Below, piece by piece: positions 707 to 35,718 of a stretch of 64,000 bases of DNA (positions are counted from its first letter, which is position 1; every line of letters begins with the position of its first letter). The stretch lies in NCBI GenBank assembly GCA_037445735.1, contig JBBIJY010000003.1:92842-156841 (forward strand), in the 5' to 3' direction. Below the pieces are notes generated by a model, which was not told where the DNA came from, searched no databases, and worked only from the letters and a program-made list of their open reading frames with translations. Source of the DNA: Armatimonadota bacterium (GTDB lineage: Bacteria; Armatimonadota; Fimbriimonadia; Fimbriimonadales; GBS-DC). A program made the position numbers and the translations under genes.

Positions 707-3068
707 GCGCCGTCGGGCGCAGCCACCGCCAGAGCCGCCGACGCGGACGCCACCGACACGGCTGCACCATCGGCAACGGCTGCGCATACAGTCGCGCCAG
801 CGCGAACTTCGCATCCCGCGCCCGCCGAACCGCCGCCAGCAGACCGCCCACCAGCGCCAGCGGCGGACCCAACCACACCAGTATCGTGAACGGCTTGTAA
901 TAGACCTCCAGCGGGATCACCCAGCGCGGCACGGTCTCCGGTCTGCCCGGCACCATCAGCAGTCGGAACTCCACCAGCCGCTGATTCACATCCATCTCGC
1001 CAATCACCACAATCGCGCCGTCGGGCAAAGTCGCAGGGATCGGAACCACCCCACCCTGCGCGATGAGCCGAAACGGCTCCACCTGCACAGGCTGCTTCCA
1101 GCCCCTCTTCTGAACCTGCAACTGCGCGATGGCACGGAAGCCCTCCTGACCCATCGCCGCGCCGTCCGCTCGCAAATCCACAAAGCGCAGCGTGTAATCG
1201 CCGACCTGAATCCGCTCGCCCTCATGCAGGCGGGCAATCAGCGGGCTGGCGTCCACCTGCGGCGGCGCAAAAAACGACACATACAGATCGTGATCCCACC
1301 AGCGGCGAATCCAGGGCCACACCACGCTGTTGTTCTCGGCGCGGCGCCGATCCAGATAGAAGCGCGGCTCGGCGATGAACTTCTCGCCATGGCGCGCGAC
1401 CTCAACCCGCACCCGATTGAACTTATCGAAGCGCGGGTCGCCGAACCGCTCCGAATCGCCCGTCATGCCCAGATAGCGCCAGCGATAGCCGAACGCCAGC
1501 ATGTCCTGACCCTGCATAATCACCACCTGCTGCTTGCCCTCGTAGGCGTTGGACAGGATCAGCCCGATGACGCCGATTGCCAGCCCCGCGTGGGTCAGGA
1601 AGCCGCCCACCGTAACGCGCGACGCCCGCACCCGCCGCCAGATCGCGCCCAGATTGGAATAGAAAGCAAAGCTGAGCAGCACCACAATAAAGAGCGTCAG
1701 CGGCTCCCGAAAGCCCAGAAAGTACAGCCCGAAGCCCGTCGCAACCGCCAGCAACCAGCTTCTGGTCAGCCGCTGCAGAATATCATCAAGGCTCATCCCC
1801 GACCAGCGCAACATCGGCGCCGCCGCCAGCACAATCGCCGCCAGCACCACCCACGGCGCATGCATCTGATTGTAAAAGCCCGGCTTCAGCGAGACCGGCT
1901 CCCCGCGAAAGAGCCTGGCAATCAGCGGGTACGAAGTGCCCACCAGACTGATAAGCGCGGACAGGATGAGCAGCGTGATGCCCCAGCGCACGGCAGCCTC
2001 GCGCGAGAAGCCGCGCACTTTAACTGCCGACGGCGGCGCGGGCATCTGCCGATACCGCCAGCCCCATAACCCCAGCGTGAGCAGCAGCCCGCCCCCCAGC
2101 ATCACTATCAGAATGCTCAGCGCGCTCTTCGCCAGCGCGTCGAACGAGTGCACCGACACCTCCGCCAGCACCCCACTGCGCGTCAGAAAAGTGCCGTACA
2201 CAAACAGCAGGAACGGAATCGCGCACAGCAGCGGGTTCCAGCGCACCATCCGCCCGCGATTGATCTGCAGCATTAGCCCGTGAACTGCTGCCGCCATAAA
2301 CAGCCACGGGAAGTAGGAGGTGTTCTCCACAGGGTCCCATGCCCAGAAGCCGCCCCAGCCGAGCGTCTCATACGCCCAGTAGCCGCCCAGCGCCAGTCCG
2401 AAGCCCAGTATCGTCGCCGCGTAAATCGCCCACGGACGCACCCGAATCGCCCACTCCTCATATTCATTCCGCCAGAGCGCCGATAGCGCGTAGGCGAACG
2501 GCACCGCTAATGCCGCGAAGCCCGCAAAAATAATCGGCGGGTGAATCGTCATCCAGATGTTCTCCAGAGAGGCGTTCAGCCCGATGCCATCGCGCGGCGG
2601 GAAGTTCGCTCGCAAAAAGGGCGCGTCCTCTGGCGGGGGCGGCAACGGCGCGAACGGACTCTGATACGCCAGAATGCCCATCAGGCACAGCACCAGCGCC
2701 GAGTAGACGGTCATCACCCGGCGTTCATAGCCGCCCGCCGTGCGCATCAGCAGCAGCCCGTACAGCCCTGTCCAGATTGCCCACAGCAGGAAACTGCCCT
2801 CCTGACCCGCCCACGCGCCCGCTATCTTGTACCAGAGCGGCAGCGACCGCTCGCTGAAATTGAACACATATTGCAAATCGTAGCGCCCCGTGATGAGCGC
2901 GTACTGCAGAACCGCCTCCGTCGCCAGAATGAAAACGAAGGCGAACCCGAACGCCCACCGCGCCCACCGAAGGGAACCCCCACCCCGCCGAACGCTGATT
3001 GCATAGAGCACGGTCGCGGCGAAAGCAAACAGCGCGCCCAGCCAGACCACCATATAGCCCGTCAGCAA
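666..3068 (-). CDS. ccmF: Cytochrome c biogenesis heme lyase CcmF
   Basis: WAGQEGSFLLW, IHPP, WAYETLGWGGFWAWDPVEN (WWD domain), GTFLTRSG..SVHSF; many TM helices; 3' end overlaps ruvA by 41 bp. Confidence 0.95.
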   Translation of the reverse strand: MLTGYMVVWLGALFAFAATVLYAISVRRGGGSLRWARWAFGFAFVFILATEAVLQYALITGRYDLQYVFNFSERSLPLWYKIAGAWAGQEGSFLLWAIWTGLYGLLLMRTAGGYERRVMTVYSALVLCLMGILAYQSPFAPLPPPPEDAPFLRANFPPRDGIGLNASLENIWMTIHPPIIFAGFAALAVPFAYALSALWRNEYEEWAIRVRPWAIYAATILGFGLALGGYWAYETLGWGGFWAWDPVENTSYFPWLFMAAAVHGLMLQINRGRMVRWNPLLCAIPFLLFVYGTFLTRSGVLAEVSVHSFDALAKSALSILIVMLGGGLLLTLGLWGWRYRQMPAPPSAVKVRGFSREAAVRWGITLLILSALISLVGTSYPLIARLFRGEPVSLKPGFYNQMHAPWVVLAAIVLAAAPMLRWSGMSLDDILQRLTRSWLLAVATGFGLYFLGFREPLTLFIVVLLSFAFYSNLGAIWRRVRASRVTVGGFLTHAGLAIGVIGLILSNAYEGKQQVVIMQGQDMLAFGYRWRYLGMTGDSERFGDPRFDKFNRVRVEVARHGEKFIAEPRFYLDRRRAENNSVVWPWIRRWWDHDLYVSFFAPPQVDASPLIARLHEGERIQVGDYTLRFVDLRADGAAMGQEGFRAIAQLQVQKRGWKQPVQVEPFRLIAQGGVVPIPATLPDGAIVVIGEMDVNQRLVEFRLLMVPGRPETVPRWVIPLEVYYKPFTILVWLGPPLALVGGLLAAVRRARDAKFALARLYAQPLPMVQPCRWRPRRRLWRWLRPTAPTVSEPASKARGA

Positions 3069-18803: not shown

Positions 18804-21497
18804 TCAGGCGGCATGCTGTTGCTGGGCGGCGGCGGGCAGGCGCAGGATGAAGCAGGCGCCAGCGGGCGAATCGCCTAACAGCAGTGTGCCGCCATGCTTT
18901 TGCGCAATCTCCAGCGAGATCGACAGCCCCAGCCCCGTGCCCTTGCCCGGCTCTTTGGTGGTGAAGAAGGGGTCAAAAATCTGCATGCGCAGGTCAGGTG
19001 GCACGCCCGGACCGTTATCCTGCACACAGAGTTCGACCCATTCGCGCCCGCTTTCCTGCACGCGGCGCGTGCGGATGACCACGCGCCCATCGGGCTGACC
19101 CTCCAGCGCGTCGCGCGCGTTGGTCAATAAGTTAATCACCACCTGTTCCAGCGAGTTCGGCTCGCCCAGCACGGGTGGGAGATTGGATTCGTATTCTTCT
19201 ATCAGCTCAATCCCGCGCTGGTGGAGCTGCTCTCGCAACAAAATGAGCGCGTTCTCGGCGACGGTGTTCAGATTCACGGGCTCGCGGGTAGCGCGTGGCT
19301 TGCGGGCAAAGGTGCGCAGGTGCAGGATAATCTGGCTCATGCGCTGGGTCTGACGCTCAATCAGGCGCATGTCGTCCAGCAGCTGACGAATCCATGTTCC
19401 CTCACCCGTACCCTCTCCCCCGCTGGGGGAGAGGGACTGGGAGACCCCCTCACCCGTGCCCTCTCCCCCGCTGGGGGAGAGGGGCTTGGGTTCTCCCTCT
19501 TCCCTCTGGGGAGAGGGTTGGGATGAGGGATTAGACACAGCGTGAGCAGCCCCCTCACCCGTACCCTCTCCCCCGCTGGGGGAGAGGGATTGGAGGCGGC
19601 TCAGCATCTGAATTGTCTGCTGCGCGACGCCGCGGATAATCGCCAGCGGCTGGTTGAGCTCGTGCGCGACGCCCGACGCCAGCGTGCCCAGCGACGCCAA
19701 TTTGGAGGTCTGAATGATCTGTGCCTCCGCTTTTGCCAGCGCGTCTACCATGTGATTGAACGAGTCGGCTAACTGCTCCAGCTCAGGCGCGTTGCCCGTG
19801 GGCAGCTGCACGCGCCGGGTCAAATCACCCCCTGCAATCGCATGCGTGGTCTCCACCAGGGTGCGCAACGGAATGTTGAGCGTGCGATAGAGATACACGG
19901 ATCCCAGCAAACCCAGCAATAACACCCCCATCAAACCAATCAGCATCGCATTAATAATCTGTTCCACAATCCGCTGCTGGAGCGTATCCGTAAAGGTGTT
20001 GAACTGCCTGGAGAGGTCGGACAGCTGGGAGAGTTGGGACAGACGGTTCTGGAGCTGATGCTGACTCTGGCGCAGGCTGGTCTTCAGCAGCCGCTGCATG
20101 CTTGCGCGGATTGCCCGGTGCTGGGCGTTGAGCATGTGCTTCGATTCGCTCAGGGTCTGGCGTTCCGCCTGTTGCAGGGTCTGTTGCAACTGTTGTTGAT
20201 GGCGGCTCATTTGCTGGCTTACCTGTCGGGCAGCCTGCTCGCGAATCTGGCGGATGGCGCCCCGCAGTGCGCCCTGCTGAATCTGGCGAGCCTTATTGAA
20301 GTGCGACTGCAGCGTGGTTGCCAGCTGAAACGCCTCTTCGGTCGGTTGCACCACAATCAGACAGGCGTTGAGGCGCACAATCGGTGCCAGCACCACCAGC
20401 GAATGGTTAACTTCTTCCAGGCGCGGGCGCACACCTTCCAGCGTGCTGGCAACCAGGGTTGCGAACGACTCGTCGCGCTGACCAACCCGCCGTGCATCGG
20501 GATGCGCCAGCACCAGCCCATCCGATGCGCAGAGCATCGCATAGCCCTGATTACCCATCCGAAAGGCGCGTATCAGCGTGTTAAGATTGTCCATGCCAAT
20601 CAGGGCGCAGATCGCGCCGCGCAGGTCAACGCCACGCTCGCGCACTGGCACCAGCACAGGGATCACGGGTTCGGCACCCGCCTCCGTGTCCAGCATGACC
20701 ACCGAGCCGACAATCGGCTGGTCGCTCGCGGTCATCTGCTGCCAGAGGGATGCCAGCACAGGTTGAAGGGCGCTTTCTGCTGGCGTGACATCGCCAACGG
20801 TCAGCAGCCGCTGACCCCTGCTATCACGCAGACAAAGCAGGCGATAAGAAGGCTCGCGGTCCTGAAGCGCCTGCAGAATCCATTCGCTTTCCTGCAGGCG
20901 GGCTTCTCGCACAGCGGGCTGCTGGGCGATGAGCGTCAGCTGGGTGAGCGCGTTCTGCAGCGTGCCATCCACCTGGCGCCTCAGGCTGTCGGTCAGGCTC
21001 AGGCTGCTTTGATTCACCTGAGTGCGAATGGCGTCGCGGCTGGCATCCGTCGCTGTGATGGCTAACTGCGCCAGCGCCCGCGCCTGCAAGGTGCTGATCT
21101 GCTCTGCCGTATCGTCAAGGGTTTGCTTCAGTGCGCGGTGGGTGGTGTGTTGCATGGCGCTGGTGCTGGACGACACGCGTCGATTGAGCGTGCGCAGGGC
21201 GCGCCCGATCAGCGCTTCCTGCCGCTGCGCCAACCGCTGCCGCTGCTGGTCCAGACCGCGCTGAATGTTCCGCTCAACCTGCACGAAGGCGTCTTCCAGC
21301 ATTGCCTGCGTGGATTGCTCCACACGAGCGCGATAATGCTGGAACGAGGCTTGCGTCTGCTGCTGAAATTCGCGCGTGGCGTTGCGAATCTGATAGCGCA
21401 AATAGACCAGCAGCACGCCTGTGCCCAGCGCCGCGGGCGCTATCGCCATCAATCCGTATAACAGCATCAGCCGATAACGCAAACTCAATCTTGTCAC
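18804..21497 (-). CDS. Sensor histidine kinase (Cache, HAMP, HisKA, HATPase; NtrB-like)
   Basis: Two TMs, GYAML..DGLVLAHPD Cache, HAMP, GVAHELNQPL, NLLTNARDA, DNGPG, FDPFFTTKEPGKGTGLGL. Confidence 0.93.
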   Translation of the reverse strand: MTRLSLRYRLMLLYGLMAIAPAALGTGVLLVYLRYQIRNATREFQQQTQASFQHYRARVEQSTQAMLEDAFVQVERNIQRGLDQQRQRLAQRQEALIGRALRTLNRRVSSSTSAMQHTTHRALKQTLDDTAEQISTLQARALAQLAITATDASRDAIRTQVNQSSLSLTDSLRRQVDGTLQNALTQLTLIAQQPAVREARLQESEWILQALQDREPSYRLLCLRDSRGQRLLTVGDVTPAESALQPVLASLWQQMTASDQPIVGSVVMLDTEAGAEPVIPVLVPVRERGVDLRGAICALIGMDNLNTLIRAFRMGNQGYAMLCASDGLVLAHPDARRVGQRDESFATLVASTLEGVRPRLEEVNHSLVVLAPIVRLNACLIVVQPTEEAFQLATTLQSHFNKARQIQQGALRGAIRQIREQAARQVSQQMSRHQQQLQQTLQQAERQTLSESKHMLNAQHRAIRASMQRLLKTSLRQSQHQLQNRLSQLSQLSDLSRQFNTFTDTLQQRIVEQIINAMLIGLMGVLLLGLLGSVYLYRTLNIPLRTLVETTHAIAGGDLTRRVQLPTGNAPELEQLADSFNHMVDALAKAEAQIIQTSKLASLGTLASGVAHELNQPLAIIRGVAQQTIQMLSRLQSLSPSGGEGTGEGAAHAVSNPSSQPSPQREEGEPKPLSPSGGEGTGEGVSQSLSPSGGEGTGEGTWIRQLLDDMRLIERQTQRMSQIILHLRTFARKPRATREPVNLNTVAENALILLREQLHQRGIELIEEYESNLPPVLGEPNSLEQVVINLLTNARDALEGQPDGRVVIRTRRVQESGREWVELCVQDNGPGVPPDLRMQIFDPFFTTKEPGKGTGLGLSISLEIAQKHGGTLLLGDSPAGACFILRLPAAAQQQHAA
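19399..19588. repeat. Cluster of four palindromic CCCTCACCC...CCCTCTCCC/GGGAGAGGG elements in frame in the kinase
   Basis: Units at 19399-19435, 19447-19483, 19495-19529 (reversed) and 19552-19588; encode LSPSGGEGTGEG x3. Confidence 0.93.
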
Positions 21498-28023: not shown

Positions 28024-28665
28024 ATGCACCACCCATCCGAGTGCCACAACTGGACCGAAGCCGAATGGCTTCAGCAGCTGCAGCGGCGCGCCGCCCGACT
28101 CACCCGCTGCGCCGACGACGCTGCCGACCTCGCGCAGGACTGCCTCTGCGCCTTTGTGAACCACTTTGGCTGCTACCCGTGGGAGTGTGCCGACCCGCTC
28201 CACGCCTGGCGCTGGTGTTGCCTGAAGCTGCGGGCGCTTGCCTGCGACGCGCACCGCCACACCCAGCGCCATCCGTCGCTGTCGCTGGAGGAAGCGCCTG
28301 AAAGCCTTGTGTGCGTGGAGATGGCTGAACAGGTGCAGGGGGATGTGGACGGCGAGGCGTTTGTGGCGCAGTTGCCGCCGCGGTTGCGGGCGGTGGTGCA
28401 GTTGCGCTTGCAGGGCTTTTCGTGGGAAGAAATTGCGCGTCAGCTGAGGGTGAAAGCCAGCACTGTGCGCGGGTATCTGCCTGAGTTGCGAGCGCGTTTT
28501 GTGGCGTTTTTCGGGTATGACCCATCGAAACGGACTTTTGAATCGTTAATAGAGGTAGAGGGGACAGACAGCCCCTCGGTGGAAGTAGGAGGCGAAGGCG
28601 ATGAAAGTGATGGGAGTGATAAGCAAGGGTTTAGTGGCGACACAGGAAGCACGGGGGGGGGGTAA
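28024..28665 (+). CDS. ECF-type sigma-70 factor
   Basis: DAADLAQD region 2; LPPRLRAVVQLR..GFSWEEIARQLRVKASTVR region 4; acidic tail overlapping the next gene. Confidence 0.82.
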   Translation: MHHPSECHNWTEAEWLQQLQRRAARLTRCADDAADLAQDCLCAFVNHFGCYPWECADPLHAWRWCCLKLRALACDAHRHTQRHPSLSLEEAPESLVCVEMAEQVQGDVDGEAFVAQLPPRLRAVVQLRLQGFSWEEIARQLRVKASTVRGYLPELRARFVAFFGYDPSKRTFESLIEVEGTDSPSVEVGGEGDESDGSDKQGFSGDTGSTGGG

Positions 28666-30667
28666 ATCCCCTGCGGTTAGAAGTCGAGTATGCTGCTGGC
28701 TGTGGAAGGTGATCCGGGTGGCTTGCATTATCGGAGCCTGTCTGGCTTGCGGGATTGGTGGCTGGGCACAAAGTCGTTTGCAAGGCGTTCGGTGCGACAC
28801 AAAAGCTACACTGCAGGTGATGGGAGAGCGGACTCCCGATTGCGGTTTTCTGTTGGGTTGTCCCTACGAACATCATTACTGTAGTTCTTTTTGGGATCTC
28901 TGCAGGGGTCAAAGGAGCCGAACTGTCATACTTAATGCCAGCTATCTAACTTTAGGAGGTGGCTTAAGTGGTGGAGGCGATGATAGTTGGAGTGGAGGAG
29001 CTGCTTTGAATGCGAATTTCACTTTTTCGTTCACCTCGCCTTATCCTAACCTGCGTATAGAGGGCTATACCTATACACCCAAGCGAGCTTTGGGTTTTTT
29101 GTACTTTGTAGAGAGAGTTCATGCGGCATCATTTGCCGCTGCAAGTGCGAGATGCGGGCCAGACATTAACCAAGAAGATGGGTGCTGTGGTTCAAGCTCG
29201 GCATCGGCAAGGGTGGTATCAGCGTCCATCCAGACATCTTTGGCTTCCGCTTCCGTTTCGTCCGGTGCGAGTGCTTCGTGTAGCTGCAATTCCGAGTGCA
29301 TGGATTGTACACAAGGGGGTGGGGGTGAAAGCAGATGTGATCCATCTGACTGTAGGGGTAGGCGAGGCTACAGGGCGAATCGGGTGCATTTTGGTCGGAG
29401 CGAGTGGGTTAGTTATGAGGAAGCGATGACAGGTAGCATTTCGGTAGACGGTTCTTCAGTGGAGTGCGGAGGTGCGGGGTCAGGTGCTTTTGTTTCAGCG
29501 TATAGTGGTTTAGTTATCCAAGTTTGGCCTGACCCGCTGGGCGTGCCTGCGATAGGGGATAACGAGTATGCATGGACAGAAACTGTCCCTGCAGAACTGC
29601 GGATAGGTGCAGCGGCGATGGTTCACACCTGGGGATGGGCTAATCCTGACACGGCGTGGTTGGCGAGCGAGGTATCGTTTCGGACGGAGCCAGAGATACC
29701 GACGGACTACACCAAGCCGGGTATCCTGACGGTGGCGCGGGGTTCGTTGCTGGTGGCGCAGAGTGAGGTGGACGGGAATATGGAGGATGGCTTCTTAGTC
29801 TATAAGTCCGACAGGCTGCCGCCGAGGAATTCGGACTTTGGGAAGAAGCGAGTTCTGTTTGCGAGCAAGCAGGGGGAGGTGGATTACGCCGAGGCGGAGG
29901 TGTTCTATCCTACCGATGGAACAAACCATCCACAAGGTGGTCCGGTTAGCAAAAAGCCAGTAATAAGAGAGTGCAGTAGTGAGCTTTGTAGGCGTGAAGT
30001 GATGCCTGGTGTGTTCGCAAATATGTGTTTCGATGTTATTCCGTCATCAGAATTGTCACCAAATTGGTTATATTATTATATACAAGCTTATTCAGTTAGT
30101 GAATTAAGATGGGGAGGTTCACAACTTGGCGATCATCTGTATGGAATAACATGTCCATTCAGTCAAGATATAATTCTCTTTGATTCAGCCTCTCCGAAAC
30201 GCGGCTACTTGGACTTTCCACTCTTCGTTCTGCAGAATCGATCGGATAGTCAAGGTCGCACGCGACCACTAATTACATACTCAGGGGACAGACTCGAGAT
30301 GGTAAAAGGGATTCATAAGTTTATTGCTATTGTCGAACATGAGCGTACTCATCTTGATCTAGGGCGGTCAGGAGTAGACCAATTTTGTTGCTCAGACCCC
30401 ACCAATGATGGAGATCGTGATGGCTTATCCGATAGCTGGGAGGAACAGCATGGACTCGATCCCGGTACTCCTATCACAGCTCCACCGTTTCATGATAGTG
30501 AAGTACTGGCTTTCATTCGTCAGTATGGTAGGCTTTTACAAAATAAGGAGAAATGGAAGGACGATTGGGCACTTGATGGCTTGCAGATTGGCATACCTGA
30601 GCAGCCCTTTCCTTGGAAGTACTCGACCGCTAATCCGCGTGCGAATTATCTGACCGACATACCATAA
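28601..30667 (+). CDS. Large exported Cys-rich protein with an HExxH motif
   Basis: GGAGG RBS, extended signal peptide ending GWA|QS, Cys/Ser-rich N-half, VEHERTH, DGDRDGLSDSWEEQHGLDP Ca-binding-like motif. Confidence 0.75.
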   Translation: MKVMGVISKGLVATQEARGGGKSPAVRSRVCCWLWKVIRVACIIGACLACGIGGWAQSRLQGVRCDTKATLQVMGERTPDCGFLLGCPYEHHYCSSFWDLCRGQRSRTVILNASYLTLGGGLSGGGDDSWSGGAALNANFTFSFTSPYPNLRIEGYTYTPKRALGFLYFVERVHAASFAAASARCGPDINQEDGCCGSSSASARVVSASIQTSLASASVSSGASASCSCNSECMDCTQGGGGESRCDPSDCRGRRGYRANRVHFGRSEWVSYEEAMTGSISVDGSSVECGGAGSGAFVSAYSGLVIQVWPDPLGVPAIGDNEYAWTETVPAELRIGAAAMVHTWGWANPDTAWLASEVSFRTEPEIPTDYTKPGILTVARGSLLVAQSEVDGNMEDGFLVYKSDRLPPRNSDFGKKRVLFASKQGEVDYAEAEVFYPTDGTNHPQGGPVSKKPVIRECSSELCRREVMPGVFANMCFDVIPSSELSPNWLYYYIQAYSVSELRWGGSQLGDHLYGITCPFSQDIILFDSASPKRGYLDFPLFVLQNRSDSQGRTRPLITYSGDRLEMVKGIHKFIAIVEHERTHLDLGRSGVDQFCCSDPTNDGDRDGLSDSWEEQHGLDPGTPITAPPFHDSEVLAFIRQYGRLLQNKEKWKDDWALDGLQIGIPEQPFPWKYSTANPRANYLTDIP
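28653..28662. repeat. G10 homopolymer in the overlap of two genes
   Basis: ac-G10-taa. Confidence 0.9.
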
Positions 30668-30685: not shown

Positions 30686-31714
30686 ATGCGACTGATGGTG
30701 GTTAGCGTCACGATAATGGGTAGCCTGATCGTTGGCGGATTGCTCTGTGGAGCTGTCGGCGGAAGCAGCCTGTGGTATAGCGATAAAGTAGCCCAAGAGC
30801 GGGAATTCTATTCCCTCATAGCCCGCGTGCGTACTATTGGTTTGGAGCGCGACAAAAAGCACGCAGCGTGGCTAATGGAACTATTGAAGCACCCTCCCAA
30901 TTTCACTTTCAAGTATCCTATTGGCACAGTCCCCGATGGTGGGCAGTTAGGTACTCCAGTCTGGCATCTTAAACTCGCTATTCTCGTCGCTCTTGGGCGA
31001 CTCGGTGACTCACAGGTGGTGTCGGAGCTGGAAGCACAGCGATATGCCCTACGGCAAGTGGGGCTTGAAGGTCAGCTGGATGTCACCATCGCCCGTATCC
31101 AGGCAGAGGCTTCAATTCCACATCCACGCTCCCTGTCTGAGTGCCAGCAAAAAATTAACCTTTTCTTGCAAGGCATAGGGTACAACTATGACACATGGCA
31201 AAGCAAACTGCGCACACAGTCTCCTGAACTTAAGGCGATATTGGCAATGCGCCAAGCCGTAGAAATGGCTTGCAATGCGTATACGGATGGTATTCTGGAA
31301 GCATTACTAGCGATTAATCATCTGCCACTCCAGCGTGATTATCCTTCAGCTCTGCGAGTGCGTTTATGCCAGCTAACACCTGAAGCGCGTTCAGCATGGT
31401 TGTTCGAGGCGCTCAAGCTGCGCCCAATCTTCAACACAGAGGCATTCTATGAGATTCAGGCGTTTGCAGATTGCGGTGCGGTATCGTGGAACTATCTGCT
31501 AAAACAGCTGCACTTGCGGTTAGCCGATCCTACATGGAAACCTGTTCAGGAATACCGACTCTGGCATTATATTCTACTGAGTTTCACGGACTCCCAGATA
31601 GCAGGTGTGCTGGTTCAGATGGGAAGACATCCCAGCCAAGAGGTTCAACAACTCGCTGGGGACATAAAGCGGCGTTTTGGTGGTTCGCCGATGGTATTTG
31701 CTTCTGACTGGTAG
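30686..31714 (+). CDS. Exported helical (HEAT-like) hypothetical protein, putative partner or immunity protein
   Basis: AGGAGG RBS, hydrophobic N-terminus, AILVALGRLGDSQVVSELE HEAT-like motif. Confidence 0.7.
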   Translation: MRLMVVSVTIMGSLIVGGLLCGAVGGSSLWYSDKVAQEREFYSLIARVRTIGLERDKKHAAWLMELLKHPPNFTFKYPIGTVPDGGQLGTPVWHLKLAILVALGRLGDSQVVSELEAQRYALRQVGLEGQLDVTIARIQAEASIPHPRSLSECQQKINLFLQGIGYNYDTWQSKLRTQSPELKAILAMRQAVEMACNAYTDGILEALLAINHLPLQRDYPSALRVRLCQLTPEARSAWLFEALKLRPIFNTEAFYEIQAFADCGAVSWNYLLKQLHLRLADPTWKPVQEYRLWHYILLSFTDSQIAGVLVQMGRHPSQEVQQLAGDIKRRFGGSPMVFASDW

Positions 31715-31803
31715 CCCAGGAATGTGCCTGGTGTGCTTCTGATCACGGTTGGGTTTGGTTGTCTGCTCTTACTCCTGAATGATTTCGGGCTTGAGGAACA
31801 GGG

Positions 31804-33453
31804 CGGCGGGACTACACCTACGATGCGTGGGGTCGGGTGCTGCGCCAGCAGGGATGCTGCGGGAGCGAGTCTGGCATAGAGGTGCAGGTGGTGTCGGCGG
31901 AGTACGACGCGGCGGGCAGGAAGCGGTTTGAGAAGGAGCGTCGGTCGGACGAGAGTGTCGTGCGCACGATTGAGTACACCTATGATGCGCTGGGACGGCT
32001 GCAAAGCGTGGGCGATTATCGGGGCAGTGTGGTGTACAGTTATGAGCGGGGCACGGGGCGGCTGCAGCGAGAGGATTACCCGAACGGGAGTTTTGTGGCG
32101 TATACTTACTATGGCGCGGACAATCCGTCGCAGGTGGGGCATGTGTGGAAGGTGGAACACAAGCGGGGGGATGGGAGTTTGTTGATCGGGTACGAGTACA
32201 CTTATGACCTGCTGGGTCGGGTGGAGCAGAGCGTGGAGCGTCCGAGTGGGGACACGACGGTTTACAGCTACACGCCTGCGGGTCGGTTAGGGAGCGAGGT
32301 GCGCACGGGTCAGGTGGCGTACAGGCGGGTGTATCAGTACAACCTGGATGGCAGTCGGCAGTGGGTGGAGCGGGAGGATGTAGTGAACGGGACGCACTGG
32401 GATGTCTACAGTTATGACGCGGTGTCGGGTCGTCTGGCGAGCGTGCTGGATGTGTGGAGTGGCGAGGAGAATAATTTTGTGTGGAACCCGGAGGGCACGC
32501 TGGCGCGGTGGAGCACTAATCAGCCGAACAGTTATGCACGGGTGTTTGGGTATGATGAGGAAGGGCGTCTAACGCGGATAGAGCGGGATTATGGGAACGG
32601 CAACCTGCAGGTGGCATATGAGTATGGGTACAATAGTGATGGTGTTCGGGTGTGGAAGCGGGATGGTCTGGCTCGGCAGGAGTATCGGTATGTATGTCGG
32701 ATAGGCTGTGGGGGCGTGCCGATGCGGGTGTATAGTCGGGCGATGGAATCGACCGCCACATGGCAAAGTCGGGAGGATTATTTGGAGACGCCGACCGTGA
32801 TAGGGTATCAAAACAGTATGGGCAGCTTTGGGCACTATGTATGGGTAGCGGGACACTGGCTGGCGGACTGGGGTGCTGGGGGTGGCTGGGCGTCTTATCA
32901 GGATCAGTTTGGCGTGGCGGTAGGTGATTTGTATTTTCCTGCTGCTGTCAAGCCTGCGCCCGAGTATTTAGGGCAGGATGAGGGGGTGTCAAATGACCCA
33001 TGTATGGAAGGATATATTCCTGTGTACGCCCTCTTTTTGCAGCAAAAACAAAAGCCTCAGCCAAAGCCCAAGCCTCCTACAACGCCATTCCGCGAGTGTT
33101 TGGAGGCGTGCGCAAAGCTAAGAAACGATCTTGAGAACCAATGCAGGAAAGATCATGCAGATTGTGTGAAAAAATGTGAAGGCGATCCTAAGTGCCTGCG
33201 CAAGTGCGATTTGGCTCTCAGAGGCTGTTTGCAGAATGCAAGTGGGATCGCTGCAGGGTGTGCCTCTCTGTGTTCCAATCAACATCTTGGTGAGCCAATA
33301 AAAATCCCTGTCCCTATAATAGGGGAAATTCCAGTACCAACCGGACCATATAACGACTGGTGCAGGAGCCAGCCCGAGGATCCACGCAAAAAATATCCAG
33401 GCTTGCCAACACCGGGAGGTGGATGGCCGGATTACGATAAAAAGAAACGATGA
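31804..33453 (+). pseudogene. 5'-truncated Rhs/YD-repeat cassette with Cys-ladder C-terminus
   Basis: YTYDAWGRV, YTYDALGRL, YTYDLLGRV, FGYDEEGRL repeats; homology begins just after an in-frame TGA (31792); no clear RBS before GTG 31837. Confidence 0.82.
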
Positions 33454-33462
33454 TTAGGAGGC

Positions 33463-34152
33463 ATGGCCATGAGAATGCAGAGCCTGTTTCTACTTGTGAT
33501 GTGTGTTTATGGTGCGATTATAGCGGGGCAAGAGCCAGTCACCGATCGAACGGTTCTTGAGACGACATCAGCTCGGGTGAAGATTCCGCCTGATTCGAAG
33601 AAAGAAGGTGAGAATAGAAGAAAATTGTCTGAACCTACCTTGCATGCCTTTGTGGAAGGGAAAGTGTATCCTGTCCCCGAGGCAGATAGGGCACAGGCAG
33701 AGGTAGGAAAGAAAACGCCAGCGAGGGTAGTTCTATCAGAGTATATTGTTCCTAAGGAAGTCTCGCCATCAGTTGTAGCAGATCATCTTGCTAATTCTCT
33801 CACGCTCGCCGTAATTTTCGCCGATTCGCTTTCGTTTGGGCTTGCTGGCGAAAAACTTCCCCAGTATCAGATCACACCTTTACCAACAGGGGCATCAGGT
33901 ACGGCTCAATATCAGGTTGTTAGGGTTGTCTCGTCTTCACCGCATCAAGAACAAGTGGTTGGGTGGGTAGCTCTGTATTGGCGTTCAGAGCGGGTAGTTG
34001 GTCTGTACTTGTTGCTTCCCAGGTCTAAGGAGGTGGACGCGAGACAGTGGGAGAAAGAATGGAGCAAAATTTTTTCGTCTTTTGAATGGAAGAATGGAGA
34101 AACCGAAAGGTTAGGTATAATTCCGACCTGTTGGGAACGCGCTGGGGTATAA
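33463..34152 (+). CDS. Exported hypothetical protein, putative immunity protein
   Basis: AGGAGG RBS right after the Rhs stop; signal-peptide-like N-terminus. Confidence 0.7.
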   Translation: MAMRMQSLFLLVMCVYGAIIAGQEPVTDRTVLETTSARVKIPPDSKKEGENRRKLSEPTLHAFVEGKVYPVPEADRAQAEVGKKTPARVVLSEYIVPKEVSPSVVADHLANSLTLAVIFADSLSFGLAGEKLPQYQITPLPTGASGTAQYQVVRVVSSSPHQEQVVGWVALYWRSERVVGLYLLLPRSKEVDARQWEKEWSKIFSSFEWKNGETERLGIIPTCWERAGV

Positions 34153-34186
34153 TGCGAACTGGCGGTTTGCGCACAGTGGGGGTACT

Positions 34187-34654
34187 TTGCTGATGATGGG
34201 TCAATCGGGCGAGCCGTGGGGTTATTATCCGCAGGACAGCAACGGTCTGGCGGTGCAGAGTGAGGTGCCGGCGGCGTGTGTTTGTGTGGTGTATTGGCAG
34301 AGCCTGTGTGCGCCGATTGCGGATGGAGGGTGTGCAGTAGATGATTGTGCCGTATCATTGATGGTGTACGACTTGCCCCTTTGCTCTGGTCAGAAGAAAC
34401 CGAAAAAGCCATGCCCTTGTAATTCAAAGGAACAAAAAGGATGCGAGCGGTTCTGCAAGTCCCTTGGGGGTGCTCCATCAGGCTGTATCCATGATGGCAA
34501 TCAACTCATATGCTCCTGCGTTTTTCCTCCTGATAAGCCTTGCAACCCGGCTCAAAAGAAACAGTGCGAGAAACTTTGTCAATCGCAAGGTGGAATTATG
34601 GCGAGCTGTTTCGTCGATAATGGGAAAAAGATAGTTTGTGACTGTATATACTGA
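34187..34654 (+). CDS. Orphan Rhs-end cassette with tandem defensin-like Cys domains
   Basis: WGYYPQDSNGLAV..PAA resembles WASYQDQFGVAV..PAA of the upstream Rhs; two C-x7-C-x3-C-x9-C-x8/9-C-x-C units; no good start. Confidence 0.7.
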   Translation: MLMMGQSGEPWGYYPQDSNGLAVQSEVPAACVCVVYWQSLCAPIADGGCAVDDCAVSLMVYDLPLCSGQKKPKKPCPCNSKEQKGCERFCKSLGGAPSGCIHDGNQLICSCVFPPDKPCNPAQKKQCEKLCQSQGGIMASCFVDNGKKIVCDCIY

Positions 34655-34664
34655 GGATTACGAT

Positions 34665-35021
34665 ATGAGAAGGTATAGAGGCTTGTTGGGGGTTGTTTCT
34701 CTGTTGATACTGCTTGCCTTTTGTTCATGGTGGTGGATGAAACTGCCTGTGAGCAAGAGGCATGCTCCTGTGTTTCAGCTACTGCCTGTTTCCATTCCGA
34801 TAGGGCATTCGAATTGGCTTACTATCAGCGACGGCGGGGTGTATGTTGTAAGGGAGACCGTTGTTGGGCAAACCTTCTGCTGGGCGGTTGAGAAGAAGCC
34901 AAGTGCCCACACCAAAGGTAGGGATACCTCTGTACACAGTGTACATCCTAATTCCCGTTCGAGACCAATTCAATTAGGGATACAGAAACGGTATGAGCTG
35001 CGTGAGGTCATCTCATGGTAA
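34665..35021 (+). CDS. Membrane-anchored hypothetical protein (possibly truncated immunity gene)
   Basis: GAGG RBS overlapping the previous stop; MRRYR followed by a TM helix. Confidence 0.55.
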   Translation: MRRYRGLLGVVSLLILLAFCSWWWMKLPVSKRHAPVFQLLPVSIPIGHSNWLTISDGGVYVVRETVVGQTFCWAVEKKPSAHTKGRDTSVHSVHPNSRSRPIQLGIQKRYELREVISW

Positions 35022-35241
35022 CAAAATGTCGCCCTCAGGTTTAGAGGAGCAACCCGAGCAGATATAGGGTGTTTTGGCTCTATCTATTGCGAAGAGCGGC
35101 TGCGGAGGAGATATAATGCATGCGGAGGGCATGCTATGCAAGGCAAGCAAGGAAACCGACCCTGCCGGGCAAGCCGAATCGGGACTCCTTGCAATAGAGC
35201 AGCAAAAGCTCTACCGCCCTGCCCATAGGAGGGAAAAGACT

Positions 35242-35718
35242 ATGATAAGACAATCTGGGGTAATTTATCAGACGCAGGATCAACCTGTTCGGCTGATCGC
35301 TTGGGTTGAACATCCCCAAGTACGCGAAGGCGCCTCTATCGAGGTAACAATCGCGCTGCAAAATCGTTCCCAATCGCAGCTCTATCTCGATCTATTTCCT
35401 CATCTCACTCCTTTTGCCGATGATCCCCACTTTCCTTTCACAATAGCGGTTCGGCACGGTGAACAGCCTGTCCCGTTCAAGTGCATCCTGATTAGGCGCA
35501 AAGTGGTTTCAGATGCCGACCTGTCCCCGATAGCCAGTGGGATGTTAGCGGGTTTTAGCTTTGATGTGCGGAGGGTAGGCTATGATGAGTTGCCCCGCGG
35601 TTCGTATCAAATTGTGCTATGGTATGACTCGGCACGCTTGAGTCGGGCGATGTTTAAGGCGAAGCGGTTGTGGCGGGGACGCACCTCCAGGCTGGAGATA
35701 CCAATAGAGATTATCTGA
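35242..35718 (+). CDS. Hypothetical Ig-like beta protein
   Basis: AGGAGGG RBS; IEVTIALQNRS...LPRGSYQIVLWY beta-sandwich pattern. Confidence 0.65.
   Translation: MIRQSGVIYQTQDQPVRLIAWVEHPQVREGASIEVTIALQNRSQSQLYLDLFPHLTPFADDPHFPFTIAVRHGEQPVPFKCILIRRKVVSDADLSPIASGMLAGFSFDVRRVGYDELPRGSYQIVLWYDSARLSRAMFKAKRLWRGRTSRLEIPIEII

Follow-up and report, generated by a model that had tools for sequence, protein, structure and literature searches.

In a 64,000-nucleotide stretch of an Armatimonadota genome (assembly GCA_037445735.1, contig JBBIJY010000003.1, positions 92,842 to 156,841; hereafter the window), a truncated YD-repeat (Rhs-like) gene ends in a tip that carries ten cysteines within 59 residues, spaced as an exact mirror about a short turn. 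We identify this cysteine ladder as the core of a C-terminal tip domain, hitherto without a name, belonging to a polymorphic YD-repeat/Rhs-like toxin system of Armatimonadota (Fimbriimonadales), and structure prediction together with helix geometry suggests that it quite probably folds as a long two-helix hairpin closed by five disulfide rungs. Positions are those of the window; related loci, genomes, contigs and proteins bear L, G, C and P numbers (contigs always being named as such), and C1 to C10 otherwise denote the ladder cysteines. The open reading frame (ORF) carrying the ladder is composed as follows.

31799..31801, plus strand: 5' breakpoint, where similarity to all other Rhs copies begins.
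31837..33453, plus strand: ORF P0001, 538 amino acids (aa) from a GTG (a 521-aa version is recorded as P0010), made of a YD-repeat core fragment and a variable tip.
32896..32985, plus strand: core-tip junction YQDQFGV ... PAPEYLGQDEG, common to other tips of the family.
32986..33096, plus strand: N-terminal part of the tip, predicted disordered, with the invariant Cys389 (33001..33003) and a Lys/Pro/Gln-rich linker (33040..33096).
33097..33273, plus strand: ten-cysteine ladder, 59 residues, ORF residues 421-479.
Helix 1 to 33174, turn C-E-G-D at 33175..33186 and helix 2 from 33187, plus strand: parts of the ladder according to the model.
33274..33450, plus strand: Pro-rich tail with the invariant Cys509 (33361..33363) and a conserved DPRKKYPGLP-type end.

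The ladder cysteines stand at offsets 0, 4, 15, 22, 26, 32, 36, 43, 54 and 58 in the translation of 33097..33273, giving a spacing of 3-10-6-3-5-3-6-10-3 mirrored about the five-residue EGDPK turn, with both ends in frame on TGT codons (33097-33099 and 33271-33273). An earlier annotation made without database searches, the sequence-only reading, had given this spacing with its coordinates and frame and had noted a Pro-rich tail; the former proved exact on translation of 31837..33453 and of the ladder itself, and the latter is present, with 12 Pro in the last 59 residues of the ORF translation. Conditioned on ten cysteines in 59 residues with a cysteine at both ends, the mirror arrangement is expected by chance at 20475/1.65e9 = 1.2e-5, and the exact pattern occurs once when the whole 2.78-Mb genome is translated in six frames (38,614 stop-to-stop frames of 40 aa or more), cysteine representing 17% of the ladder vs 1.27% of the genome's frames of at least 400 aa. 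CX3C, CX5C, CX6C and CX10C intervals are found in the ladder, without any CXXC or CXC pair, and a CX3C-Xn-CX3C motif is met twice, one inside the other (C1,C2/C9,C10 and C4,C5/C6,C7). Two further cysteines, at ORF residues 389 and 509, stand 31 and 29 residues outside the ladder and are invariant in all relatives, bringing the tip to 12. The sequence-only reading had missed this pair, as well as the 5' truncation of the gene and the conserved partner gene behind it. The other invariant residues are Leu/Ala/Lys near C1-C2, a Leu in helix 2, a Gly before C9 and Pro/Tyr in the tail, with no His, Asp, Glu or Ser among the invariant positions of the tip. As far as sequence evidence goes, the recurrence of the spacing in independent relatives is a stronger argument than the chance figure.

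These relatives were sought in two protein libraries, in genome and metagenome contigs and in a sample of 401 genomes from across the phylum. HMMER, run exhaustively on 1,835,955,588 representatives, returned 5 proteins at E<=1e-3, with the ladder in two of them, P0005 (58% identity) and P0006 (37%); P0007-P0009, repeat or low-complexity proteins aligned over short stretches, were excluded. Among the latter, P0008 (334 aa) matched with E 6e-5 on a 33-residue stretch only and was judged not homologous to the tip; its repeated C-X6-C-X13-C-X6-C units, separated by Pro/Arg-rich linkers, represent another mirror-spaced, two-rung hairpin design. A 5.8-billion-cluster search added P0011, from an NCBI Armatimonadota metagenome-assembled genome (MAG), and gave no candidate in its near-length class. 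Scans of genome and metagenome contigs recovered L018 and L019, the latter encoding P0005; a contig scan with the whole ORF matched six loci in the YD part only (query residues up to 372), the tip being present in none, and the Protein Atlas gave no usable match for the tip. In the phylum sample, two profiles, A2 for the tip and A5 for the ladder by itself, detected ladders in 5 of the 401 genomes: G000, G177 (a tandem pair of copies that equal P0011), G055, G215 (two forms) and G039, where L025 carries a 12-Cys near-mirror variant, 6-10-3-10-3-5-3-9-3-10-6. We set aside the match in G381, a 121-aa frame with a non-mirror cysteine pattern, and those in G261, G132, G394 and G186 (4 of the 10 places in the ladder-profile scan), which were alternative frames of other genes or frames with stops.

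Eight distinct sequences share the 3-10-...-10-3 frame, and half of them retain all ten cysteines: the window, P0005/L019, P0011/G177 and L023 of G055. The last keeps the exact spacing with only 6/49 non-Cys identities to the window (counted on alignment A5) and is rich in aromatic residues (13 F/W/Y vs 0 in the window ladder), so that the same spacing, which the sequence-only reading had suggested searching for in other YD-repeat proteins, does recur in independent tips. In the 4/8 sequences with fewer cysteines (8 or 6), the missing ones are always mirror partners, as a ladder of cross-strand pairs predicts: C5 and C6 are absent from P0006 (3-10-6-9-6-10-3), L018 (3-10-6-10-6-10-3) and L031 (3-10-6-16-6-10-3), whose central gaps are 9, 10 and 16, and C4, C7, C5 and C6 from L036 (3-10-26-10-3). 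Proteins of the divergent, aromatic-rich branch (G055, G215) end 6-7 residues past C10, without the Pro-rich tail. At L031 in G215 (ORF 1387..1707, plus strand), the 8-Cys ladder stands behind the first ~24 residues of a neighbouring membrane-partner family (MYWRLAGT...) and resembles a recombination chimera within an array of partner genes.

The tip also appears to be maintained. Among the window, L019 and L018, non-synonymous divergence (pN) is 0.25-0.39 against a saturated synonymous divergence (pS) of 0.75-0.87, and the tip is therefore under purifying selection. It would be hard to credit, in this light, that the ladder is a decaying remnant without function, its symmetry the leftover of an unused fragment. 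Such an origin would suit a gene that is 5'-truncated and devoid of an export signal and, more weakly, the lack of a promoter-like site upstream on the plus strand, where a promoter and terminator scan gave nothing informative. The frame, though, is open, the cysteines found in all five aligned polar-type sequences are invariant despite the saturated synonymous sites, the partner gene is conserved too, and orphan cassettes of rhs loci are known reservoirs. Cassette recombination in general is treated in passages of PMC3482391.

The predicted fold agrees with this pattern of pairwise loss. In an AlphaFold2 run on the 185-residue tip (C1 being residue 68 and C10 residue 126), two helices (64-93 and 98-131) joined by a C-E-G-D turn (94-97) span C1 to C10, with a predicted local distance difference test score (pLDDT) of 77-87 across the ladder. 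Residues 1-61 fall below a pLDDT of 50, and the tail is modelled as a small beta-hairpin (strands 136-139 and 143-146) followed by a helix (150-158), with a pLDDT of 83 for residues 151-170. Cysteines occupy phases of 0, 40, 60, 40 and 80 degrees on helix 1 and 0, 40, 20, 40 and 80 degrees on helix 2, all ten lying within 80 degrees on one face per helix and falling on position 0 or 4 of a repeat of 11 residues, a phase suggesting that the helices are nearly straight or form a very gently right-handed pair. In an optimisation of two ideal helices, kept rigid while their rotation, spacing, shift and crossing angle varied, the five nested pairs could be accommodated at once at 8.0 A spacing and a -7 degree crossing, with C-beta distances of 3.74-3.91 A, C-alpha distances of 4.6-4.9 A and no clashes, while random 5+5 cysteine placements failed in 12/12 cases. 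The long antiparallel helical hairpin and the nested pairing (C1-C10, C2-C9 and so on) put forward by the sequence-only reading are thus supported at the level of models, the former by the AlphaFold2 helices and the latter by the rigid-helix feasibility and the mirror-pair losses.

That reading had recognised no named domain in the ladder, and the searches agree. Pfam gave 0 families for the 59-residue ladder at E up to 10 and noise only for the whole tip, NCBIfam nothing relevant to the tip, and PDB sequence and profile searches nothing below E 1.8. Foldseek of the tip model against PDB returned nothing at E<=1e-3 (a mosquito anti-platelet protein hairpin ranked 14th, E 4.8), and the VIA-align matches (Z up to 6.8) were all generic hairpins of antiparallel helices, at a level too low to indicate more than a common arrangement.

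The gene that carries the ladder shows the organisation of a cassette system. YD (RHS) repeats were detected in two stretches of P0001 (PF05593 RHS_repeat, E=2.9e-10; TIGR01643, E=1.1e-6), and by blastn its core DNA shares 87-94% identity, as far as 32511-32744, with copies found in two other MAGs and on contigs C24 and C4; beyond that point the sequences diverge. Near-identical cores end in different tips at L003, L009, L011 and L013, the YQDQFGV ... PAPEYLGQDEG motif precedes different tips in L009 and L013, and the junction varies before the tips (YQDQFGV in the window, YQDWFGV, YRDHFGQ, and YPQDSNGL in orphans). On the far side of the tip and its partner gene lies a second boundary:

34127..34318, plus strand: junction element of ~190 nucleotides (nt), which opens the next orphan tip cassette and marks where recombination delimits the ladder-partner module downstream.

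This element recurs after tips at six loci by blastn (L003, L004, L005, L007, L009 and L019), and we regard it as almost certain that the locus has a polymorphic-toxin anatomy with exchangeable tip cassettes. Logan contigs have loose ends at 31799/31801, 34127 and 34262; one DNA contig matches 32715..34236 with 0 differences and probably represents the source run, so that it brings no independent support, and RNA datasets are absent from the sequencing runs listed for the locus.

At its other end the gene is broken. The blastn alignments to L003, L004, L005, L006, L008, L009 and L011 all start at 31799-31801, and in L003 the equivalent of this breakpoint falls inside a full-length ORF of 1042 aa, at about residue 654; the window gene is therefore a 5'-truncated orphan without export signal, from which the N-terminal secretion/delivery region is missing. 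The full-length homologue at L003 starts with a hydrophobic, signal-like segment. In addition, the genome (99.2% complete) encodes a VKOR homologue, with no match for DsbB, and neither the sheath protein TssC nor Hcp of type VI secretion systems (T6SS) was matched in it. From the signal on the full-length member, the presence of VKOR and the lack of a T6SS sheath or Hcp match, we infer that the tip folds oxidatively outside the cytoplasm, where a Sec-type signal on the full-length carrier would bring it.

Another explanation would be a tip active in the cytoplasm and free of disulfides, whose reduced cysteines coordinate a metal (zinc, copper or an iron-sulfur cluster). Ten to 12 Cys in a short segment could indeed coordinate metals, the window copy has no export signal, and zinc can be held by reduced twin-CX3C proteins, the small Tims for example. 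We consider it very improbable here: the ladder contains no CXXC or CXC, its cysteine motifs lie on helices, no metal-binding family was matched (Pfam at E up to 10; PDB), and cysteines were lost as cross-strand mirror pairs and not as local clusters. The partner proteins, moreover, are exported or membrane-embedded and not cytoplasmic, and the full-length member has a signal-like N-terminus in a genome that encodes VKOR.

Immediately downstream of the tip stands its partner:

33463..34152, plus strand: P0004, 229 aa, hydrophobic and signal-like at its N-terminus, with a fold predicted to be of PsbP/Mog1/DcrB type; candidate cognate immunity protein.

P0004 starts 10 nt past the stop codon of the tip and contains one hydrophobic segment, at residues 2-20. 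A homologous gene follows the tip in all contexts with downstream DNA: the window, L019 (38% identity), L018 (26% over 153 residues) and both G177 copies. The family counts 5 members, with P0014 lying on a short contig, and the partner gene is likewise conserved. No Pfam family (E<=0.01) and no NCBIfam family (E<=1) was found for P0004. Its AlphaFold2 model (pLDDT 72, predicted template modelling score 0.73) had 7 Foldseek matches in PDB at E<=1e-3, the best being PsbP (1v2b_B, E 7.4e-5, prob 1.00, TMt 0.56), and also matched Mog1, DcrB and the Eag chaperones SciW and EagT6, as well as the periplasmic T6SS immunity proteins Tsi3 (4luq_C, E 8e-3) and PA3488 (5xmg, E 4e-3). P0004 thereby resembles Tsi3, PA3488/Tli5 (periplasmic T6SS immunity proteins with a PsbP/Mog1-like fold) and DcrB in its predicted fold and signal-like N-terminus, but differs from them in lacking a sequence-level family match, and the TM-scores are modest (0.3-0.56). 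A complex prediction of the tip (A2) with mature P0004 (A3, residues 23-229) scored 0.02, with a mark of 0.32, and has no bearing either way. In the other branches, the aromatic ladders (G055, G215) and the 12-Cys variant (G039) are followed by ORFs with 2-4 hydrophobic segments. Partners are exported or embedded in membranes, which points to an action in the cell envelope.

The same structural matches could be read without any toxin-immunity pair: a surface YD protein might use the ladder as its end for adhesion or signalling, and P0004 might serve as chaperone or adaptor, as the partners of PsbP/Mog1 type (Eag, DUF1795) do for T6SS effectors. The Foldseek matches to SciW and EagT6 speak for it. 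Eag chaperones are nonetheless cytoplasmic, and P0004, with its hydrophobic signal-like N-terminus, is unlike them; TssC and Hcp were not found in the genome. P0004 also moves with the tip, downstream of it, in orphan cassettes bounded by recombination junctions, which is the classical position of an immunity gene, and sister cassettes with phospholipase-A2-like and membrane-type tips have membrane partners. On balance we hold this alternative to be rather improbable, while noting in its favour that PsbP/MOG1-like genes beside toxin genes were described as possible adaptors in passages of PMC3482391.

Taken together, these elements led us to propose a mechanism in which the tip would be an exported, disulfide-laddered miniprotein. 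Two alpha-helices of ~30 residues would run antiparallel from the tight EGDP turn, with the ten cysteines on one face of each following the 11-residue repeat, and five nested disulfides (C1-C10, C2-C9, C3-C8, C4-C7 and C5-C6) would replace a hydrophobic core, Cys389 and Cys509 probably closing a sixth, outer link. Since the invariant residues are almost only Cys, with no His, Asp, Glu or Ser, the tip most likely represents a miniprotein of great stability and without enzymatic activity. In competitors it may bind or perturb a target in the membrane or cell envelope, P0004, as an exported PsbP-fold protein, would neutralise it in the producer, and polytopic membrane proteins would do so in the divergent aromatic-rich branch. 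The window copy itself is an orphan cassette under purifying selection, whose deployment would require recombination onto a full-length Rhs gene. We lean, by a narrow measure, towards the chain as a whole, that of an exported, non-enzymatic, disulfide-laddered miniprotein toxin acting on the cell envelope; envelope toxicity with P0004 as the immunity protein we place just short of an even chance.

Several observations weigh against this proposal. Lacking a signal peptide, P0001 as encoded would remain in the cytoplasm, a reducing compartment, and the polar-type ladder has 0 instances on a demonstrably full-length Rhs protein: the versions in the window, L019, P0006 and the two copies of G177 are truncated or short, and that of L018 extends past the end of its contig. 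No canonical Rhs core-end model (core-associated, with a DPxGL-type cleavage motif) was detected for P0001 in NCBIfam at E up to 1, and the gene is therefore named here Rhs-like or YD-repeat. As regards the fold, the AlphaFold2 alignment had 4 rows only and the model is of moderate confidence; a control in which the middle rung was shifted by one turn, and hence no longer mirrored, fitted as well (cost 0.02, C-alpha distance 6.1 A). Geometry alone thus does not call for C3/C8 to stand in exact mirror position; in these models it seems to require cysteines on the same face at heights matched within about one turn. The mirror-pair losses may reflect as few as two or three events in related sequences. 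Finally, the charge of the ladder is nearly neutral (10 K+R vs 8 D+E), and typical antimicrobial peptides are cationic.

The ladder might also be a rigid stalk, a presentation scaffold or a receptor-binding or translocation piece, with the active part residing in its flanks, around Cys389 or in the Pro-rich tail. The tail is conserved and modelled at pLDDT 83, the invariant non-Cys residues of the ladder are of structural types only, and the polar-type ladder always comes with the same flanks. The G055 and G215 ladders are, by contrast, tail-less yet stand in tip position with their own partner gene, the ladder there constituting about the whole structured tip, and the N-terminal flank is predicted to be disordered, making such a division of roles unlikely in our view.

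A toxin of secreted type would have company among the other tips of the genome, beginning with the cassette that directly follows the ladder module:

34187..34654, plus strand: orphan tip cassette, which opens with the YPQDSNGL junction and encodes 19 Cys.

In its last ~85 residues (34391..34651), this cassette bears two tandem signatures of the cysteine-stabilised alpha-beta (CS-alpha-beta) type known from defensins and scorpion toxins, C...CxxxC...GxC...CxC twice; Pfam Toxin_3 matched the tip at E 1.6 only, and a PDB sequence search gave nothing relevant. Next comes a small ORF (34638..35021), in which one segment is hydrophobic. Bacterial cis-defensins have been published (PMC11561630), and none was met on an Rhs tip in the literature passages searched. 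An Rhs copy at the end of contig C4 of G000 (L011, 691..2601, minus strand) ends in a phospholipase-A2-like tip with a Ca-loop-like CGPG and a CCxxHDxCY motif, which PF00068 matched at E 7.2e-4 and 20.5 bits, below the cut-off of 32.1; Tox-PLA2 tips are already known in polymorphic toxins (passages of PMC3482391). On contig C24, the tip of L009 has 10 Cys, comprising a CX3C-X14-CX3C pair, a Pro-rich linker and six more Cys, and a hydrophobic orphan tip (34670-35260, minus strand) has 20 Cys, many as CX3C, while one orphan tip of contig C4 has a single Cys.

We would tentatively, and at somewhat less than even odds, extend these observations to an Armatimonadota superfamily of 'cystine-ladder' hairpin miniproteins, with 3-6 mirror-spaced rungs, a fixed cysteine frame and hypervariable surfaces, serving as exchangeable tips of Sec-exported, T6SS-independent YD-repeat proteins. 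They would belong to a venom-like, envelope-acting set that includes the phospholipase-A2-like and double defensin-like (CS-alpha-beta) tips, each with an exported or membrane immunity protein. Animal venom peptides similarly combine a fixed cysteine frame with a hypervariable surface, as proposed for the ladder family.

Two further arrangements were observed among these loci. At L012 (G000, contig C1), ORF 997..2064 on the minus strand (355 aa) begins with an Rhs N-terminal region (91% identity with residues 2-188 of the protein at L003) and passes directly, without intervening YD repeats, into an unrelated domain rich in Cys. Contigs C1, C4 and C24 all break in or near Rhs repeats.

Among known structures, the closest design is that of plant alpha-hairpinins (EcAMP1; the six-Cys nigellin or CC-AMP1 type), likewise helix-loop-helix peptides with CX3C motifs on antiparallel helices and nested disulfides, which in the ladder are predicted, and non-enzymatic defence peptides, a role we propose likewise for the ladder. 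Twin-CX3C small Tims, twin-CX9C CHCH proteins and the cytochrome bc1 hinge protein are helical hairpins too, with two nested disulfides and an oxidising compartment; they differ from the ladder in having two rungs and not five, in their spacings and in being eukaryotic and mitochondrial, and they gave no significant match to it, the top rows of the profile-PDB search being CHCHD1/MRPS37 (E 1.8) and QCR6 (E 5-6). In the abstract and passages of PMC11591084, alpha-hairpinins are plant peptides with 4, rarely 6, Cys, the 6C motif being C-X3-C-X3-C-X6-C-X3-C-X3-C. Relative to them, the ladder corresponds to two CX3C/CX3C sets, one inside the other, with a middle rung, and it differs by its 10 Cys (12 with the flanks) over 59 residues, its bacterial host, its place as C-terminal domain of a YD-repeat protein and its partner gene. 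One relative, L025, carries the exact published 6C module. Pfam and PDB searches detected no sequence relationship between the ladder and alpha-hairpinins, so that the 'extended alpha-hairpinin' of the sequence-only reading stands as an analogy of design and falls as a statement of family membership. What sets the ladder apart from that design is the number of rungs, its occurrence in a bacterium, its attachment to a YD-repeat carrier and its partner genes.

As a cassette system, the locus resembles Rhs/YD polymorphic toxins in its YD repeats, its junction, the alternative tips on near-identical cores, the small gene after each tip and the arrays of 5'-truncated cassettes. Described Rhs tips are mostly enzymes acting in the cytoplasm; the present system departs from those described in having no T6SS match, an undetected core-end profile and tips that are small, Cys-rich and apparently non-enzymatic or of secreted type. 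In 300,000 of the 357,715 characters of PMC3482391, supplements apart, the terms disulfide, cysteine-rich, defensin and helical hairpin have 0 occurrences, and the titles, abstracts and passages covered by our literature search describe no bacterial alpha-hairpinin-like ladder and no Cys-ladder Rhs tip. If the proposed structure is correct, the ladder would be the longest disulfide-stapled two-helix hairpin described, with five or six rungs vs two or three in plant alpha-hairpinins, and the first from bacteria. It would offer a compact and probably very stable scaffold tolerating near-complete replacement of its surface, as the low identity between branches (6/49 non-Cys positions) suggests, and of interest for peptide engineering. 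If the proposed function also holds, the picture of Rhs/YD systems would widen to exchangeable tips that are small, Cys-rich and of secreted type, whose partners are exported or sit in membranes and which would kill target cells from outside, in a lineage with no T6SS sheath or Hcp match, and the bacterial Rhs cocoon would serve as a carrier for extracellular peptide toxins and not for injected enzymes.

Other genes near these loci complete the description. At L025 in G039 (ORF 1489..2367, minus strand), an Rhs tip contains the 12-Cys near-mirror ladder followed by the C-X3-C-X3-C-X6-C-X3-C-X3-C module and then by an ORF with hydrophobic segments, and a DPLW...-type end is present, unlike in the window gene. 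Upstream of the truncated Rhs gene, the window holds two ORFs on the plus strand without Pfam family: 28601..30667 encodes 688 aa, many of them Cys, with a hydrophobic segment at the N-terminus and a motif of HExxH type (HERTH), and 30686..31714 encodes 342 aa with a signal-like start.

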